Shown here piece by piece: positions 25,496-32,912 of a stretch of DNA of 32,912 nucleotides. The notes under the pieces are model-generated. The model was not told the origin of the DNA, searched no databases, and saw only the letters and a list, made by a program, of their open reading frames with translations. Each line of letters begins with the position of its first letter. The first letter of the stretch is position 1. Where the stretch lies: contig JBIKWN010000024.1 in NCBI GenBank assembly GCA_044356295.1, forward strand, positions 1 through 32,912. Reading direction: 5' to 3'. The stretch is from Bdellovibrionota bacterium (GTDB taxonomy: Bacteria > Bdellovibrionota_C > UBA2361 > JBIKWN01). Both the position numbers and the translations under genes were made by a program.

Positions 25496-26292
25496 GGTTT
25501 TTTCACCTGAGCACTAAGAAAAAATAAAACACCTGCTGCGACTGCAGTAGTTGCACCGGGAGGGGTATCTAAAGTCCAAGAGCAAAGAATGCCAATCGAG
25601 ACCGAGACAACACCTACCATTGTCGATGCTATCACTGCTTGAGTAATCGATCGAGATCTTGGAATTGCAATAGCTCCAGGAACAGTTAAAAGGGTAGTTG
25701 TTAAAAGTGCCCCACAAACCTTCAAAGAAGCCACCACAACTAGGGCAATGACGATATAAAGAGCTGTTAAATAGAGCTTTGGAGAGAATCCCTGCCTTTT
25801 AAAGAACCCCTCATCTATTAAAAACAGAGAAAGTGGTCGTCTAAATAAATAATACAAGAGGAATAAAGCCAACGTTAAAAGACTCAAGAATAATCGATCC
25901 TGAGCAGTAATGAGTAAAAGGTTTCCGAATAGTACTTCATGTATCGACACTTGCTGTTGATGATTTGCTTGGAAAACGATAACCCCTAAACCTAAAAACA
26001 ACGAGAAAAGTACTGCAAGGATTACATCACTTCGGTGGCGAAGTCGCTGGTCAGCTAGAGCTAGAAGTATCGAAGCAAAAAGAGCAAACAGCAAAGAACC
26101 TAACCAAGGGGAAGCGCCTACTAATCCAGCAAGAGCAATTCCTAGTAAAGATCCATGACCAAGACCTTCACCTAAAAAACTAAGATGTCTAGAAACGACA
26201 AAAACACTGACCATGCCAGTAATAAGACCAATCAGAATGGTCGAAAAAAGAATCTGCAAAAAATAACGGTCAGAGAAAAGTTCTAACAGCAT
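25492..26292 (-). CDS. Zn/Mn ABC transporter permease (ZnuB-like)
   Basis: SFLGEGLGHGSLLG, LFGNLL, KVCGALL..LL.VP, DTPPGAT; multiple TM helices. Confidence 0.92.
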   Translation of the reverse strand: MLLELFSDRYFLQILFSTILIGLITGMVSVFVVSRHLSFLGEGLGHGSLLGIALAGLVGASPWLGSLLFALFASILLALADQRLRHRSDVILAVLFSLFLGLGVIVFQANHQQQVSIHEVLFGNLLLITAQDRLFLSLLTLALFLLYYLFRRPLSLFLIDEGFFKRQGFSPKLYLTALYIVIALVVVASLKVCGALLTTTLLTVPGAIAIPRSRSITQAVIASTMVGVVSVSIGILCSWTLDTPPGATTAVAAGVLFFLSAQVKKP

Positions 26293-26957
26293 CGACTCTC
26301 CTCAAATGATTTCTTAGTAAGAACTTCATCCTCAATAACATATACCCAATCAACTGGGAGGCTAATGTGATGTAAATCATGTGTCGCTAATAGCACCGAG
26401 CAATGATTTTTAATATTTTGTATAACGCTCATAACAGAGCTCTGATTTTTTACATCGATTCCAGAGGTTGTCTCGTCGAGAAGAAGTAATCGAGGCTGTC
26501 CAATAAGTTCCCGAGCAATAGTTGCACGTTGAAGCTGCCCAACAGACAGATGTGAGAGCACTTCAGATTCTATCTCGTAAAGACCTAAGTCATGGATGAG
26601 CGAAGAGGCGTGGTCTTCTACTTCTTTTGAAAAGCTATTCCAAATACCAGTTAACCTTGATGCACCCAGTAAAATATATTCACGAACAGTTATAGGAAGA
26701 TATTGTGGAATGATGACTCGCTGCGGCACATAACCAATTCTTTGTGAAGCTGATACAGATTCATCCTTAGAAAATGATAAAGCCCCACTCATTAATTCAA
26801 TTTCAGTTGCAAGCGTTGACAGTATCGTTGATTTTCCAGCGCCATTTCCTCCTAAGAGAAGATTAAATGTATTTTGTGGAATGTGAAAATCAGAGGCAGT
26901 AGCAACAACACGCTGAGGAAATCCAAACACACATTGAGCTGACCAAACGACATCCAT
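26283..26957 (-). CDS. Zn/Mn ABC transporter ATPase (ZnuC-like)
   Basis: GGNGAGKST, IGYVPQ, LSVGQLQR, LLLDETTSGID, THDL. Confidence 0.9.
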   Translation of the reverse strand: MDVVWSAQCVFGFPQRVVATASDFHIPQNTFNLLLGGNGAGKSTILSTLATEIELMSGALSFSKDESVSASQRIGYVPQRVIIPQYLPITVREYILLGASRLTGIWNSFSKEVEDHASSLIHDLGLYEIESEVLSHLSVGQLQRATIARELIGQPRLLLLDETTSGIDVKNQSSVMSVIQNIKNHCSVLLATHDLHHISLPVDWVYVIEDEVLTKKSFEESRCC

Positions 26958-27793
26958 TAATGCCCATCCATATTCAGAAATACAGACAAAATAGAACGGT
27001 AATAATCAATAAATGAGTTTTCTTTTTGAGCGGATTCATCCACTTCCCTTGTTGGCATATCAAATGACTCACGTAAAGTATTATACATACTTCTTGGCGA
27101 TGAAGTGCTTCCAATAAAGATCAAATGAGGAAAATCTTTTTTGTATTTTTTAATCATTTGTAATGATCGTGGAGTAAACTCAGCGGTGCTATTGTTCGGT
27201 CGAAGGGTTGAAACTTCTTTACAAGAAATATACCGAGCAAACGAAGAGAGCATCGAGTGATCTGAGATATAAGCACATTGAGGAGTCACATGCTCTGAAA
27301 ATACCTTCAAAAAACGAGCAGTAAAAACATCAACTTGTTCTTGAGTAATCTTAGACTGAGTACTTTCATTAATTGTAAGAACAAACAGCGGAATGGCCTT
27401 GAGAACAAGCTCAGGATTTAACCATCCATGCTCCGACATCGAAACAGGATCACCGATACTTGTTATTTTTTTTGCCCAACTAGAATTTTTTAATAAAGAT
27501 AGATTTAACTCAACACCACTGGAACTAAGAATAATCGAAGCATCATTGAGAAGCTTTATCTGACTCGGAACCATTTCAAAAGAATGAAGATCTATGCCAG
27601 GGGGTACGAGCGTAGAAATTCTATCAGCAGGAACGCCAAAATCAGTGAGTAAAATTTTTATTGGATGAACTGTTACAACAATCGAGGCATGTGCTGTCGT
27701 ACTCATAGAAAAGACAACAGCAATGGTAAAAACAATACCTAAACACTTCTCAATAAAAACAAGTTTCCAATGAACAATTTTATTCACTGACAA
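26957..27793 (-). CDS. Zn/Mn ABC transporter substrate-binding protein (ZnuA-like)
   Basis: Signal peptide (AHA), VVTVHPI, PPGIDLHSFE, EHGWLNP, SDHSML. Start codon uncertain (TTG 27793 or GTG 27787). Confidence 0.85.
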   Translation of the reverse strand: MSVNKIVHWKLVFIEKCLGIVFTIAVVFSMSTTAHASIVVTVHPIKILLTDFGVPADRISTLVPPGIDLHSFEMVPSQIKLLNDASIILSSSGVELNLSLLKNSSWAKKITSIGDPVSMSEHGWLNPELVLKAIPLFVLTINESTQSKITQEQVDVFTARFLKVFSEHVTPQCAYISDHSMLSSFARYISCKEVSTLRPNNSTAEFTPRSLQMIKKYKKDFPHLIFIGSTSSPRSMYNTLRESFDMPTREVDESAQKENSFIDYYRSILSVFLNMDGH

Positions 27794-29195
27794 TACTCTC
27801 AGATAAAGGAGGTCTCATTAATCTAAGTCGTGACTCAAGGGCAAGTCTTGCAAGTTCGGGATGACTTTGCTCTAAACGAGAAAGCTGATTTAAGTGATCA
27901 GCTGTTTGAGTAATCAACCGCGCTGCATCCCCCTCTGCTACACCTGAAAGCTTCAATAACGATGAAAACTCTAGCCACCCTTCACATTGTGCCCAAACGA
28001 TTGCTGTAAGAGCAGCATTCGGCACAACTTGTATATCACTTTGAAGCGGATTTGCTTGAGAATCTTTTACTCGAATTGTAATTCTTTCTAGATGCCGAAG
28101 AGTTTCTTTTTTCAATGGATTTGGCTTCAAGCCAAAATAGGTACGATGCGCATCTCCTGAGATACTTGCAACGAGTCCTATTAATTCATCAGAAGAAACT
28201 TCATCAAAGATTCCATCGCTGACTGATTCTGCTAACTCAAGAACAAGGCTTGTACAGAGTTCAGCAGCCCAATCTCCTTTCTCACTTAAGCCTCCACCTT
28301 CAAGATAACCAAGCTTTCGAAGCCCTTCTAGGGTTCTGTTTAAAAGCTCTTCTTGTCTTGTTTCTAGAGTATTAGCTTCACTTCTTAAACGTCGTATGCG
28401 TCGCATTACTCTTCTTTTCGTATCTGCGGGCAGATTCGAATCATCTTGCGTATCGTGCTCTCGTAATGAGGCTTCATCAAAAATATTTTTTGCCATTCGT
28501 CTATCGGAATAAGCGGCAAAACTTTTCTGAACCGTATATTTTAGATCGTCAACATTTCTAAACTTTAGTAAATTCAAAACGGTAGATGGTGATGCAAAGT
28601 ACTGCGAACGGAGTGGTTCAGGTGGCTGTTTTGAGACTTCATGAAGCACACGTGCGTCGCAGTATGGACCAGGTGCAACTAAACATATTCCGATTGCGTC
28701 TTTTCCTCTACGTCCTGCACGACCCGACATCTGTTGAAATTCAGATGACATTAAATTCTGGAATCCATCGTTTCCTCGTCTACTGTGAGCAGTTACGATA
28801 ACGCTTCTTGCTGGAAAATCAACACCGGCTGCAACAGTTCCAGTAGCAATAAGTAGTCGAAGCAATCCACGAGACATTAACTCTTCTAAAAGAAGTCTCC
28901 AAACTAAAAGCTGACCTGCGTGATGCGCGCCAACAGCTGTACTTAGAAGGGCTCCAAACTGTACATGATTGTAAATAATTTGAGCATCAAGAGCGTACTT
29001 GGAAATCACTTGCTCAATTGCTTCTTTCAACTTTTCAGTTTGGGCTGCGGGAACCATCCCAGCTTTTGAACGAACAAGTTGCTCTACGTCGAGATCGCAC
29101 TGTCTTCGTGAACTTCTAAATAAAATTGCGGGTAATAAATTGTCTTTTTCCAAAAAGAAAAGAACTTTACGAACTGGATATTCTCCGTACAACAT
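27780..29195 (-). CDS. Ski2/HelY-like SF2 helicase, C-terminal half (RecA2 plus C-terminal helical domains)
   Basis: Motif IV LPAILFRSSRRQCD, HHAG, motif V ATGTVAAGVDFPA, motif VI QMSGRAGRRG. Confidence 0.88.
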   Translation of the reverse strand: MLYGEYPVRKVLFFLEKDNLLPAILFRSSRRQCDLDVEQLVRSKAGMVPAAQTEKLKEAIEQVISKYALDAQIIYNHVQFGALLSTAVGAHHAGQLLVWRLLLEELMSRGLLRLLIATGTVAAGVDFPARSVIVTAHSRRGNDGFQNLMSSEFQQMSGRAGRRGKDAIGICLVAPGPYCDARVLHEVSKQPPEPLRSQYFASPSTVLNLLKFRNVDDLKYTVQKSFAAYSDRRMAKNIFDEASLREHDTQDDSNLPADTKRRVMRRIRRLRSEANTLETRQEELLNRTLEGLRKLGYLEGGGLSEKGDWAAELCTSLVLELAESVSDGIFDEVSSDELIGLVASISGDAHRTYFGLKPNPLKKETLRHLERITIRVKDSQANPLQSDIQVVPNAALTAIVWAQCEGWLEFSSLLKLSGVAEGDAARLITQTADHLNQLSRLEQSHPELARLALESRLRLMRPPLSESIVSE

Positions 29196-29198
29196 GAC

Positions 29199-30068
29199 TT
29201 ACCTTTTACCTCTTCTACTTCCACCACGACGATCAGAGGATTGTCCTGAGCGACCACGAGCATTATGTCGGTGTGATTCTTGACTACGACGAGGAGACAA
29301 CCTCATCCCAGCTCCATCGAGACGTATATTTTCATAATACTTTGCTACAGGTTCAAAAATTCTGCCGTTTTCAGAAGACAATGGCATAACTCCAATATCA
29401 GGATGAAGAAACCCAAGTCGAAGCTCGACAGGTCGGTCTCGTTTGATAACAACACGACAAGGGCGACCACGAACTTCAGAAATCCAGCCAGATACTTCGG
29501 CTGCATTAGAAATTGAAGCTGATAACATTAGAAGAGTTGAAGAAGTTGGTGTAAGAATGATGCTCTCTTCCCAAACAGCGCCTCTTTGTTGATCTGCGAT
29601 AAAATGTACTTCATCAAGTACAACGAGCCCATAACCTGCCGAGTCTTTATATAACTCATTTCGATAAATTTCAGTTGTTGCAACAACAACTGATGCATCA
29701 CCATCAATTTTTCTATCGCCAGTTAATAAACCTACTTTTACTCTTGGTTCAAATGTCTTTTTAAGCTCAGAATACTTTGTATTAGAAAGAGCTTTCAACG
29801 GTGTTGTATAGACAGAACGTGCTTTCATACCAATAGTTGCTTCAATAGCTTGAAGAGCTATAAAAGTTTTTCCAGCACCAGTAGGTGCGACTACTAACGT
29901 ATCAACTCCCTCAGAAACAAGAGATATAGCTTCACGTTGAAAATCATCGATTTCAAAATGTTCTGAAAGCGGCGCTCCAACACCATCTAAAAGACGTGCT
30001 TTTTCTTTTACTAAGTCTACCTTTCCACCAGTGAAATGTTTAGGAGGTCGGTTACGATCGTTTGGCAT
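29199..30068 (-). CDS. Ski2/HelY-like SF2 helicase, N-terminal half (RecA1)
   Basis: DDFQREA, APTGAGKT, YTTPLKALSN, LLTGD, ATTEIYRN, DEVH, LSAS, RPVEL; ends in an R/G/S-rich tail. Confidence 0.88.
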   Translation of the reverse strand: MPNDRNRPPKHFTGGKVDLVKEKARLLDGVGAPLSEHFEIDDFQREAISLVSEGVDTLVVAPTGAGKTFIALQAIEATIGMKARSVYTTPLKALSNTKYSELKKTFEPRVKVGLLTGDRKIDGDASVVVATTEIYRNELYKDSAGYGLVVLDEVHFIADQQRGAVWEESIILTPTSSTLLMLSASISNAAEVSGWISEVRGRPCRVVIKRDRPVELRLGFLHPDIGVMPLSSENGRIFEPVAKYYENIRLDGAGMRLSPRRSQESHRHNARGRSGQSSDRRGGSRRGKR

Positions 30069-30074
30069 AAAAAT

Positions 30075-30794
30075 TTATTGAAAAGTGTATCGAGATGACA
30101 CAAAAGTTGAAAGTTGAGAACAAGGTTGAGTTTTAAGATCAGCAAGTGTTCCTTGAAAACGAACTTGTCCGTTAAATAGGGCAACTACTTCATTTACTCG
30201 TGGTAGAAGTCTTCTTAAATCGTGACTTACGATAATGATTGTAGGCCTATATTCCTTATGTATGGCTGTGATCAGATTCATAATGACATTACTAGCAATT
30301 GGATCAAGTCCGGCAGTTGGATCGTCAAGTAACAATAATCTTGGACGCGAAATGAGGGCGCGGGCTAAGCTAATTCTTCTCCTCATTCCTCCACTGAGTT
30401 GCCCTGGAATTTTCTGACTCGCTTTTACAAGGCCGACCCGCAACAGTATCTCTTGTACTTTAGCATGAACAAGCATTTTCTGATCATCTTCTAAATGCCA
30501 CGTCGGCACTTCACCTTGAACTAAGGGAAACGAAAGATTGTCATAGACACTCATAGAATCAAAAAGAGCTCCTTCTTGAAACATGAGACCAATCTCATCG
30601 CTTTTACAGATATCGAGCTGAAAAGCTCCATGACTAGGGTGAATCACACCTGCAAGTATTTTCAAGAGAGTACTTTTTCCACCTCCACTAGGACCAATAA
30701 GTCCAGTAATCGTTCCTGGCTCAACGGCAAAAGAAACACCATTGAGTATATGTTTCTGACCAAAGAATCGGTGAATGTCTTCAAGAATAAACAT
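30075..30794 (-). CDS. MlaF/Ttg2A-like ABC ATPase
   Basis: GPSGGGKST, FQEGALFDSMSVYDN, LSGGMRRR, LLLDDPTAGLDP, VSHD. Confidence 0.88.
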   Translation of the reverse strand: MFILEDIHRFFGQKHILNGVSFAVEPGTITGLIGPSGGGKSTLLKILAGVIHPSHGAFQLDICKSDEIGLMFQEGALFDSMSVYDNLSFPLVQGEVPTWHLEDDQKMLVHAKVQEILLRVGLVKASQKIPGQLSGGMRRRISLARALISRPRLLLLDDPTAGLDPIASNVIMNLITAIHKEYRPTIIIVSHDLRRLLPRVNEVVALFNGQVRFQGTLADLKTQPCSQLSTFVSSRYTFQ

Positions 30795-31751
30795 TTAACT
30801 GTTTTCTAAAGATTGTTTAAGTTCAGATAATATCTTCATTTGGGCTTCGAAGGTAGGTGCGATAAGAAAGCTTTTCCGCCATTGCTGACCTTTGACCATC
30901 TGTGAAACCAATTGCTTTAGTTTCCCCGATGCTGCTTTTTCTGGAAACTCTTCCAAAAGTAAATCCTTGTATCTCTCGATGACTGCAAGATATTCACTAT
31001 TTGTTCTTTCAGATATCTTACCTTTTATGATATCGGTAAAAATCCAAGGATTTTCGATAGCGCCTCTGCCAATAAATAAACCGTCTGCACCAGATTGCAT
31101 TTTTTCTTCGGCAGTTTGTTTACTTACTACATCACCGCTACCACAAACAGGAATTTTTACATTCGATTTTGCTGCTGTTATAAAACTCCAATCTGCGACA
31201 CCACGGTAAAGATCAGATCTAGTTCTTCCGTGAATGGTGATCCCCTCAACACCTTCACTCTCAGCAATATGAGCAATTTCAAGACAATTTTTTGATTGAG
31301 CATCCCATCCAGATCTCATCTTCATCGTCAGTGGAACTTTAATTGATTTTCTTACAGTATTAAAAATTGTTTTTAAATGATCAGGTTGGCGCATGAGCTC
31401 GCACCCCCCACCTTTCCTTACAACTTTTGGTGCTGGGCAGCCACAATTAATATCGACTAGATCGACACCAAAGTCTTCACACATTTTTGCAGCATCTGCC
31501 ATGCGTTTGGGATCATAACCAAATATTTGAATACCATATGGTCGCTCCATTTCATGGAACTTCATCATATCAAGAGTTTTTTTTATTTTACGGGTCATCC
31601 CTTCAACAGAGACAAATTCACTGAGCATCAACCCGACCGTATCTGGATTTAACTCTTTTATGAGTCTTCGAAAACTTGAACAAGTAACGCCGCTCATTGG
31701 AGCAAGCACTAAACCACCAGTAATGGAGATATCTCGAATATAATAGGTCAT
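30795..31751 (-). CDS. dusB: tRNA-dihydrouridine synthase (DusB-like)
   Basis: LAPMSGVT, QIFG, DINCGCP, KMRSGW, IHGRT, GSGDV, IGRGAIENPWIF. Confidence 0.92.
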   Translation of the reverse strand: MTYYIRDISITGGLVLAPMSGVTCSSFRRLIKELNPDTVGLMLSEFVSVEGMTRKIKKTLDMMKFHEMERPYGIQIFGYDPKRMADAAKMCEDFGVDLVDINCGCPAPKVVRKGGGCELMRQPDHLKTIFNTVRKSIKVPLTMKMRSGWDAQSKNCLEIAHIAESEGVEGITIHGRTRSDLYRGVADWSFITAAKSNVKIPVCGSGDVVSKQTAEEKMQSGADGLFIGRGAIENPWIFTDIIKGKISERTNSEYLAVIERYKDLLLEEFPEKAASGKLKQLVSQMVKGQQWRKSFLIAPTFEAQMKILSELKQSLENS

Positions 31752-31753
31752 CA

Positions 31754-32912
31754 CTATAAACTGCGACGAACAAAACCGGAAAGTTCTTCAATAGTAAACG
31801 GTTTTGGTAAAAATCCTCGGGCACCTGCCTCGAGCATTCTTTCAACAGATCCTTCAGCGCTAAAGCCTGAAATCACTAAAAAGTTGGCTTTAGGATACTC
31901 TTTTCTCACCTCAAAGAAAAACTCCTCCCCAGACATACCAGGCATCAGCATATCGGTGATTATGAGATCAAAAGGAAGACCATCTTTCTTAATATCTCTT
32001 AAAGCTTCAAGAGCAGAACTCGATGTGGTCACTTTGTAGCCCAAATGCTGCAAGCTAACTGAAAGAACATTTCTAATCGAAAGCTCATCATCGACGATAA
32101 GAATACGCTCAGTTCCACGCAGAATTGAGTCTTGAATTTTAGAAGCTTTCGCCTCTTCACTTTCAATGACTGTCTGAACTGGCAAGTAGACACTCACAAC
32201 AGTTCCAAATCCGACCTTCGAATTTACTGCTACAGATCCGCCAAGTTTTTTACAGATCTCTGAAATCGTATAAAGACCAAGACCCGTACCTTTATCTCTC
32301 TTGGTAGTAAAAAATGGTTCAAATATTTTCTCTAAGAGAGAATCATCTATCCCTGTTCCAGTATCACGCACTGAAAGTACTGCATAAGAAGTGCAAGCTG
32401 GTTCCTCGGTTTTTAAAACAGTTTTTAAAGTGTCGAGATCTTTTTCAATTCTAAGCGCAACCTCCAACTCACCTTGGTCTTCGATTGCATCACGAGCATT
32501 CATCACTAAATTAACAAGAACCTGTCCGAGCTTTCCTTCAGTAGAAAGAACAGAAACATCTTGCACTTCGTAATGAGTTAATAACTTTAATCTTGTAGGG
32601 ATTGCCTTGCGTAAAAGGGTCAAGGTCTTTGTAATGACATCCCGCAAAAATACAGGTTCATTCTCATCACCATTTTCAACTCTAGAAAACTGTAATACTT
32701 GTGCCGTAATTGAAGCGCCTTTTTTTATTCCATCTTCGATAGCCTGAAGACTTTCCGAAACTTGAGGATTGTCACCAAGGACAGCACGCAAATACGTTGC
32801 GTGTCCTAAAATTCCAGTAAGTACATTATTGAAATCATGAGCTACTGCACCAGAGAGCAGACCTAATGTTTCCAGTCGTTGGGAATGAAAAAGTGAAAGT
32901 TGATCTGCTTTT
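31754..32912 (-). CDS. Hybrid sensor histidine kinase/receiver (CckA-like), 5' end outside window
   Basis: Frame is open to the window edge: [24 protein letters not shown] (H-box), [29 protein letters not shown]-terminal receiver (VDDE, TDMLMP, KPF). Confidence 0.95.

Follow-up and report, generated by a model that had tools for sequence, protein, structure and literature searches.

A probable old gene fission that divides a Ski2/Mtr4/HelY-type RNA helicase between two neighbouring genes in Bdellovibrionota_C

Superfamily 2 (SF2) helicases are textbook single-chain motors, in which the ATP site and the RNA track lie between the two RecA domains of one polypeptide. The closest described relatives of the genes discussed here are Mtr4, Ski2 and FRH, the Ski2-like DExH helicases of the exosome pathway. 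A bacterial Ski2-like protein, HelY of Mycobacterium smegmatis, is a 3'-to-5' RNA helicase according to the available text of PMC8931766, which cites Uson et al. 2015. Helicase genes in two pieces are described in the available text of PMC3655853 for Nanoarchaeota: the genes of Lhr ('large helicase-related protein') NEQ003-409 and Nst172-239, the latter split at a different site, and the split reverse gyrase NEQ318-434. Here we analyse two minus-strand genes of a Bdellovibrionota bacterium (GTDB phylum Bdellovibrionota_C), located on contig JBIKWN010000024.1 of assembly GCA_044356295.1. The window, the whole 32,912-nucleotide stretch analysed, is one contig of a 2.96-Mb, 128-contig assembly. 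Its open reading frames (ORFs) ORF1 (29199..30068, 289 aa) and ORF2 (27780..29195, 471 aa) share one frame and are separated by TAA-GTC. We refer to them as the N-half and the C-half.

The two genes most probably represent an old and selectively maintained gene fission, through which a DExH RNA helicase of the Ski2/Mtr4/HelY type is made as two polypeptides; we place the probability of this reading at about 85%. The features of the pair are as follows.

29199..30068, minus strand: N-half gene of 289 codons, closed by TAA; encodes RecA1 (motifs Q and I-III), then a short segment past RecA1 and a basic tail.
29421..29960, minus strand: RecA1 core, N-half residues 37-216, delimited by superposition of the AlphaFold2 (AF2) model of the N-half alone.
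29334..29420, minus strand: conserved strand-hairpin-helix after RecA1, N-half residues 217-245 (RLGFLHP..GVxPL..EVxxFY).
29202..29333, minus strand: Arg/Lys/Gly-rich tail at the C terminus of the N-half (residues 246-289), with a net charge of +9 and predicted disorder.
29193..29205, minus strand: junction, with AAGG at 29202-29205, TAA at 29199-29201, GTC at 29196-29198 and the ATG of the C-half at 29193-29195.
27780..29195, minus strand: C-half gene of 471 codons and a stop; encodes what remains of RecA2 (motifs IV-VI), followed by a winged helix and a helical bundle/DSHCT, without the arch.
28698..29135, minus strand: motifs IV, V and VI of the C-half, residues 21-166, with invariant columns L21 P22 F26 R27, T118-R130 and Q155-D166.
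27810..28289, minus strand: DSHCT domain, C-half residues 303-462, PF08148 at 56.1 bits.

A preliminary description of the locus had read the junction as two same-frame ORFs parted by the single TAA of GGT AAA AGG TAA, followed by GTC and ATG TTG, with AAGG 6 nt ahead of the second ATG, a basic tail on ORF1 and a fused product of 762 aa. All of this is present in the sequence as described, and reading through both ORFs with X at the stop yields 762 residues. The description had also divided the helicase motifs between the two ORFs, a division borne out by 30-row alignments of each half, in which the motif stretches are invariant columns. The stretches that correspond to SF2 motifs Q, I, Ia, Ib, II (DEVH) and III are in ORF1 and those that correspond to IV, V and VI are in ORF2, and all are intact. 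In Pfam, ORF1 matches PF00270 (DEAD, E 1.3e-23) and ORF2 matches PF08148 (DSHCT, E 5.3e-15, against a cut-off of 22.7 bits). A genome-wide search with PF08148 found the C-half (58.2 bits) as the sole DSHCT match in the whole assembly.

The break recurs throughout the phylum. A search of 41 related genomes with the C-half found the gene in 39 of them, with all full-length matches in open frames of ~466-552 aa and never of ~760. The phylum search with the read-through protein covered the 124 genomes returned, which have 36 family codes; 84 further matches lie beyond those listed. The gene was matched in 120 genomes, and the four without a match are 55-84% complete. Among the matches listed, 23 are full-length and each of these has at least one in-frame stop; the remainder match N and C separately, and no ORF in the matches listed for the 120 genomes runs uninterrupted across both halves. 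The loci of five matches with long open frames (G008, G074, G047, G048 and G015) were read, and all are split.

Thirty-two loci were read in detail, and 31 hold both halves, the remaining one (L026) being cut by a contig end. In all 31 the halves are adjacent, the N ORF is closed by a stop codon and the C-half has a start of its own. The details of the junction vary widely. The stop is TAA in 13 loci, TAG in 10 and TGA in 8. The halves overlap by 4 nt (ATGA/GTGA) in four loci and by 1 nt (TAATG/TGATG) in six, and abut in three; the gap is +2 nt in four loci, +3 in four, +4 in one and +54 in two, with single loci at +9, +12, +45, +96, +159, +201 and +438. The two ORFs share a frame in 16 loci and differ in frame in 15. 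Natural fission had been the proposal of the preliminary description, with recurrence of the split under different stops, gaps and frames named as a check on it; the split recurs in just this varied form in 31 of 31 loci, across gaps from -4 to +438 nt, and this, together with selection on both halves, supports the proposal.

Two of these loci carry peculiarities of their own. In L010 (G015:C4), positions 1020-1640 consist of a 219-bp unit in 2.8 copies with 98% match, which reaches from the end of the N-half tail across its stop and over the C-half's first ~61 codons, so that two extra short copies of the C-half start lie between the genes. In L031 (G008:C17), the N-half lies in two frames, matching residues 17-111 and 104-288 of the query, which suggests a frameshift around codon 105-110; L032, its sister genome, is intact.

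Both halves evolve under strong purifying selection. The ratio of non-synonymous to synonymous substitution rates (dN/dS), calculated by the Nei-Gojobori method, is 0.02-0.07 across the three pairs with unsaturated dS: 0.023 for the N-half and 0.035 for the C-half in L015/L016 (dS ~0.7), 0.047 and 0.046 in L004/L007, and 0.065 for the C-half in L031/L032, where the N-half was not computed. Between the window and its congener L002 the halves share 90% and 93% amino-acid identity, with dN of 0.089 (N) and 0.069 (C) and with saturated dS. The dN/dS comparison of each half, another check raised in the preliminary description, thus favours maintenance of both genes.

The stop codon is also found in independent data. 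We compared Logan contigs of other lake-water runs (X2, X3, X4 and X5) with the window over the junction. The contigs of X2 (28855-29700) and X3 (29113-29304) span it with no differing letters, so that at positions 29196-29201, where a check of the reads had been suggested, two other runs agree with the window. The contig of X5 (29168-29335) also spans the junction and has two differing letters, whose positions are not listed; the X4 contig does not cover it. One in-frame TAA would be the smallest possible lesion from a recent nonsense mutation, or from a mistake in sequencing or assembly. Such an origin has a negligible chance against the split in the 120 gene-bearing genomes of the phylum (among the matches listed) with its different stops, gaps and frames, the purifying selection on both halves and the identical X2 and X3 contigs; since dN/dS is low and the split is recurrent, we regard it as excluded that the stop marks a pseudogene, a recent nonsense mutation or a faulty assembly.

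The same break is seen in other bacterial lineages. The best 120 homologues of the C-half in a large protein collection are all C-halves of ~470 aa. An exhaustive search of representatives with the C-half shows a sharp drop beyond the family of the window, below which, at ~35% identity, fused proteins of ~900 aa are mixed with C-half-only proteins that start at the same position. In an acidobacterial lineage (Pyrinomonadaceae, Blastocatellia), an N-half match lies directly upstream on the same strand in 77 of 80 loci; 74 of these 77 are split, one (L111, G125) is a single fused ORF, and in two the N frame runs to the end of the locus. In the fused proteins P0131 and P0168 the tail reads directly into the C-half start. 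A sample of 81 genomes of the acidobacterial class contains 34 with matches, among them three with fused genes (G157, G199 and G152) and several with adjacent halves. Since a few genomes of the otherwise split acidobacterial clade carry a fused ORF, fission and fusion are labile at this loop. Many acidobacterial genomes have the two halves on separate contigs, and in G142 they share a contig at a distance of 207 kb; the halves can therefore be unlinked genes. Unlinked N-half-like and C-half-like genes, with presumed partnership, were observed in G142, G182, G167, G162, G191, G137, G203, G147, G195, G172 and others.

A third lineage, known from metagenome contigs (L113-L192) and having a C-half of 620 aa, displays the reversed gene order: 63 of 80 loci have a same-strand N-half downstream of the C-half, ~230-600 nt past the end of the C-half gene, and none of the 80 has one upstream. 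A metagenome scan with P0130 alone found no relative, and an alignment query recovered relatives. By alignment, the N-half ends and the C-half starts are equivalent in all three lineages. In a quick maximum-likelihood tree of the C-half region (93 rows), each split lineage has a support of 100 in the Shimodaira-Hasegawa-like approximate likelihood ratio test, and a single 67-row clade, which also includes fused forms, unites the three. The forks that would order the split lineages among themselves and against the fused forms are open in this tree; there may have been one ancient fission with later re-fusions, or several fissions at a permissive loop.

The family of the divided enzyme follows from profile and fold comparisons. 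A 30-sequence N-half profile matches yeast Ski2 (4a4z, E 1.3e-56), Mtr4/Dob1 (2xgj, 1.1e-54), FRH and human SKIV2L, with Brr2 and Hel308 far behind Ski2 and Mtr4. Joint Genome Institute (JGI) labels for homologues of the C-half read 'ATP-dependent RNA helicase HelY' or 'superfamily II RNA helicase'. The AF2 model of the read-through product, built on a 63-row alignment, has a predicted local distance difference test score (pLDDT) of 88.5 and a predicted template modelling score of 0.86, and is of low confidence only in residues 1-14, 268-285 (pLDDT <50) and the last four. Its closest structure is Mtr4 (2xgj_B: Z 35.8, root-mean-square deviation (rmsd) 3.5, 629 aligned, model residues 37-759), followed by human MTR4 (Z 35.6), FRH (34.1), Ski2 (4buj_E, 32.4) and Hel308/Hjm (~26). 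The four-domain ring of RecA1 and RecA2 with a winged helix and a helical bundle is matched, in a prediction that leans on homology. Because the read-through model best matches the Mtr4, FRH and Ski2 structures, the two genes are predicted jointly to encode a complete Mtr4-like helicase core. The arch insertion (stalk plus KOW/fist) is missing, leaving a gap of ~190 columns where the single-chain relatives P0135, P0132 and P0138 have an insertion; the C-halves of the acidobacterial and reversed-order lineages have an insertion at the arch position.

Two other identities were considered and rejected. The Hel308 equivalog model of NCBIfam (NF040935) gives 84.6 bits for the N-half and 64.7 for the C-half against a cut-off of 1200. 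The halves are not mutual duplicates either, a profile-profile comparison showing no likeness (probability 0.4).

The position of the cut differs from that given in the preliminary description, which had placed it in the linker between the RecA domains: the N-half holds ~30 structured residues past RecA1, and only then the basic tail. In the AF2 model of the N-half alone (pLDDT 76.9), the rigid-body fit to Mtr4, Ski2, Hel308, Brr2 and Pol theta is limited to residues 37-216. This RecA1 superposes on residues 147-326 of Mtr4 (4u4c_A) with Z 22.9 and rmsd 1.7 over 175 aligned residues, and also fits residues 327-508 of Ski2 (4a4z) and 21-202 of Hel308 (2va8_B); alignments extending to residue 246 have rmsd of 3.4-4.1. 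Residues 217-245 are near-invariant in 30 relatives, and the Ski2 residues aligned to them come after the RPVPL motif. The read-through model folds this segment, at pLDDT 92-96, into two strands (215-222 and 226-229) and a helix (239-244); in the N-half alone the first strand spans only 219-222, and the pLDDT of the post-RecA1 segment is down to 84-86. In SF2 topology the strand that follows RPVPL is the first strand of RecA2, and the N-half would therefore donate this strand. We infer from these models that the cut probably falls in a loop inside RecA2, just ahead of the helix preceding motif IV. The available texts of PMC9023267, PMC5931499, PMC4731217, PMC6004480 and PMC11725892 contain no residue boundaries of RecA1 and RecA2 for Mtr4, Ski2 or FRH.

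The tail is a constant feature of the split form. It follows Y245 in 30 of 30 N-halves with a length of 15-69 aa (median 33.5), a net charge of +5 to +17, and a median Arg plus Lys content of 35%, compared with 13% in the body. The tail changes faster in sequence than the N-half body while its composition is kept: two pairs have a tail dN/dS of 0.13 against 0.02-0.03 for the body, and a third pair has 0.015 against 0.024. A tail is also kept where a gap of 45-201 nt precedes the next gene, and in shorter form where the N-half comes second in gene order; encoding a ribosome-binding site therefore does not fully account for it. Fused relatives have at this position a loop of 20-25 residues, somewhat basic in P0135 and P0148. 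The 736-aa P0148 is fused and arch-less, and its linker (..GPRRFRRSVL..) is like the tail plus C-half start of the split family. Among the fused forms it may be the nearest to that family, its placement in the tree being open.

The pair is embedded in a tight minus-strand operon with the order histidine kinase/receiver, Dus, ABC (ATP-binding cassette) ATPase, N-half, C-half, ZnuA-like protein and ABC ATPase; gene gaps are 0-6 nt, or the genes overlap, throughout the block 26283-32911. The downstream ZnuA-like ORF (26957..27793, listed with a TTG start) shares 14 nt (27780-27793) with the end of the C-half gene. A promoter and terminator scan found the junction without a terminator-like site and with fewer promoter-like sites than in shuffled sequences. 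In 25 of 31 loci, the stretch at -20..-4 relative to the C-half start includes a Shine-Dalgarno-like 4-mer, compared with a fraction of 0.19 of control windows; the genes of relatives often overlap (ATGA, TAATG), with the Shine-Dalgarno-like run inside the tail codons.

The following mechanism is proposed. The N-half supplies RecA1 with the motifs of ATP binding and hydrolysis, the strand-hairpin-helix and the disordered basic tail, and the C-half what is left of RecA2, including motifs IV-VI, together with the winged helix and the helical bundle (DSHCT). Co-transcription and translational coupling would provide roughly equal amounts of the two chains, which would assemble non-covalently into a ring-shaped, four-domain Mtr4-like core. 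The RecA2 sheet would be completed by the post-RecA1 strand of the N-half, and the ATP site would be formed in trans by motifs I and II of the N-half with motif VI of the C-half. The tail would be a remnant of the disordered loop at this position in single-chain relatives and would bind RNA or the partner chain. Control at the level of assembly, suggested in the preliminary description, is speculative. By analogy with M. smegmatis HelY and Mtr4, the enzyme would act on RNA in the 3'-to-5' direction.

A bolder extension of this scheme is tentative, and we consider it somewhat more likely to be wrong than right. It holds that the cut lies inside RecA2 and the motor is held together by strand complementation, that the Arg/Gly-rich tail is a freed RNA-binding arm which a fused enzyme cannot deploy in the same way, and that the loop is a breakpoint of repeated splitting, re-fusion, order swap and unlinking in at least three bacterial lineages. 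If true, the genes would represent a natural system of exchangeable or regulated helicase subunits.

Several observations weigh against the two-polypeptide helicase. The heterodimer is pieced together from genomics and from the fold of a read-through single chain, and the assignment of residues 217-245 to RecA2 rests on general knowledge of SF2 topology and indirect model evidence. The PF00271 (Helicase_C) score of ORF2, 23.0 bits, is slightly below the cut-off of 23.5. None of the RNA runs checked for the locus is listed as holding it, so that co-transcription and separate translation can only be inferred. Of the 17 third-lineage loci that lack an N-half match, nine are flanked by 900 nt or more on either side. 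The double-frame N-half of L031 may mean that the gene is dispensable in G008, or may be an assembly error.

Some of these observations would suit a situation in which both genes are functional and form no stable helicase, the C-half serving as an adaptor or RNA-binding protein and the N-half as a separate ATPase, or each having other partners. The pairing of the halves is indeed deduced through models, the halves are unlinked in some acidobacterial genomes, and nine of the 80 reversed-order loci have no N-half nearby. Yet the motifs of a single SF2 ATP and RNA site are divided over the halves and are all invariant, the halves are adjacent in all 31 phylum loci and often overlap, and their dN/dS values are near-equal. 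Occasional fusions also occur within the split acidobacterial clade (clade B), and the assembly has no other DSHCT gene. We therefore consider separate functions unlikely.

The split could also be apparent only, the product being a single 762-residue chain made by stop-codon read-through or other recoding. The two ORFs in the window are in frame with one TAA and one codon between them; a frame is also shared in 16 of the 31 related loci, and true fusions exist (P0135, P0132 and P0148; L111, P0131 and P0168). No single recoding mechanism covers all loci, however: 15 of the 31 are out of frame, with overlaps of 1 or 4 nt and gaps of up to 438 nt. The C-half has its own ATG, with the Shine-Dalgarno-like run in 25 of the 31 loci, a sister lineage has the reversed gene order, and acidobacterial halves are unlinked. 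Since reversed and unlinked arrangements exist, a read-through product is not the general active form, and for the window we regard it as highly improbable. Fission into two separately made and maintained polypeptides thus stays our preferred reading.

If it is correct, an Mtr4/Ski2-type core is made from two gene products and kept across a phylum-level group, with the same loop cut elsewhere in adjacent, reversed, unlinked and re-fused forms. Such an enzyme would provide a system for asking how far covalent linkage matters in coupling ATP hydrolysis to translocation, and its junction a permissive split site for engineered split Ski2-like helicases. There is also a warning for annotation: C-halves are called 'HelY' or 'hypothetical', and N-halves are liable to pass as truncated DEAD-box proteins. 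The open-access literature searched yielded no description of a split Ski2/HelY helicase. The finding touches no long-standing open question, split helicase genes having a precedent in Nanoarchaeota in the available text of PMC3655853.

Compared with described systems, the pair is closest to Mtr4, Ski2 and FRH, which are its best matches in sequence and fold and share the same four-domain core and DSHCT. When aligned with Ski2, the tail faces a low-confidence segment that contains Gly, Lys and Arg and sits at the same position. Ski2-like helicases have both RecA domains on one polypeptide, which this pair does not. Unlike Mtr4, Ski2 and FRH, it consists of two chains, lacks the arch/KOW insertion and the long N-terminal region, is bacterial and has no known exosome partners. 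The likeness to M. smegmatis HelY, itself a single chain, is taken from the JGI names of many C-half homologues. The single-chain bacterial relatives P0135, P0132 and P0138 (887-915 aa) and P0148 (736 aa) are colinear with the pair at ~35% identity over both halves and have the same motifs. They differ in being fused and, in three of the four (P0135, P0132 and P0138), in an arch-like insertion of ~190 residues that includes a Cys cluster; their loop is shorter and less basic than the split form's tail. The split Lhr and reverse gyrase of Nanoarchaeota, as presented in the available text of PMC3655853, are likewise SF2-type helicases encoded by two genes, but belong to other families and to the reduced genomes of archaeal symbionts, in which the genes are unlinked.

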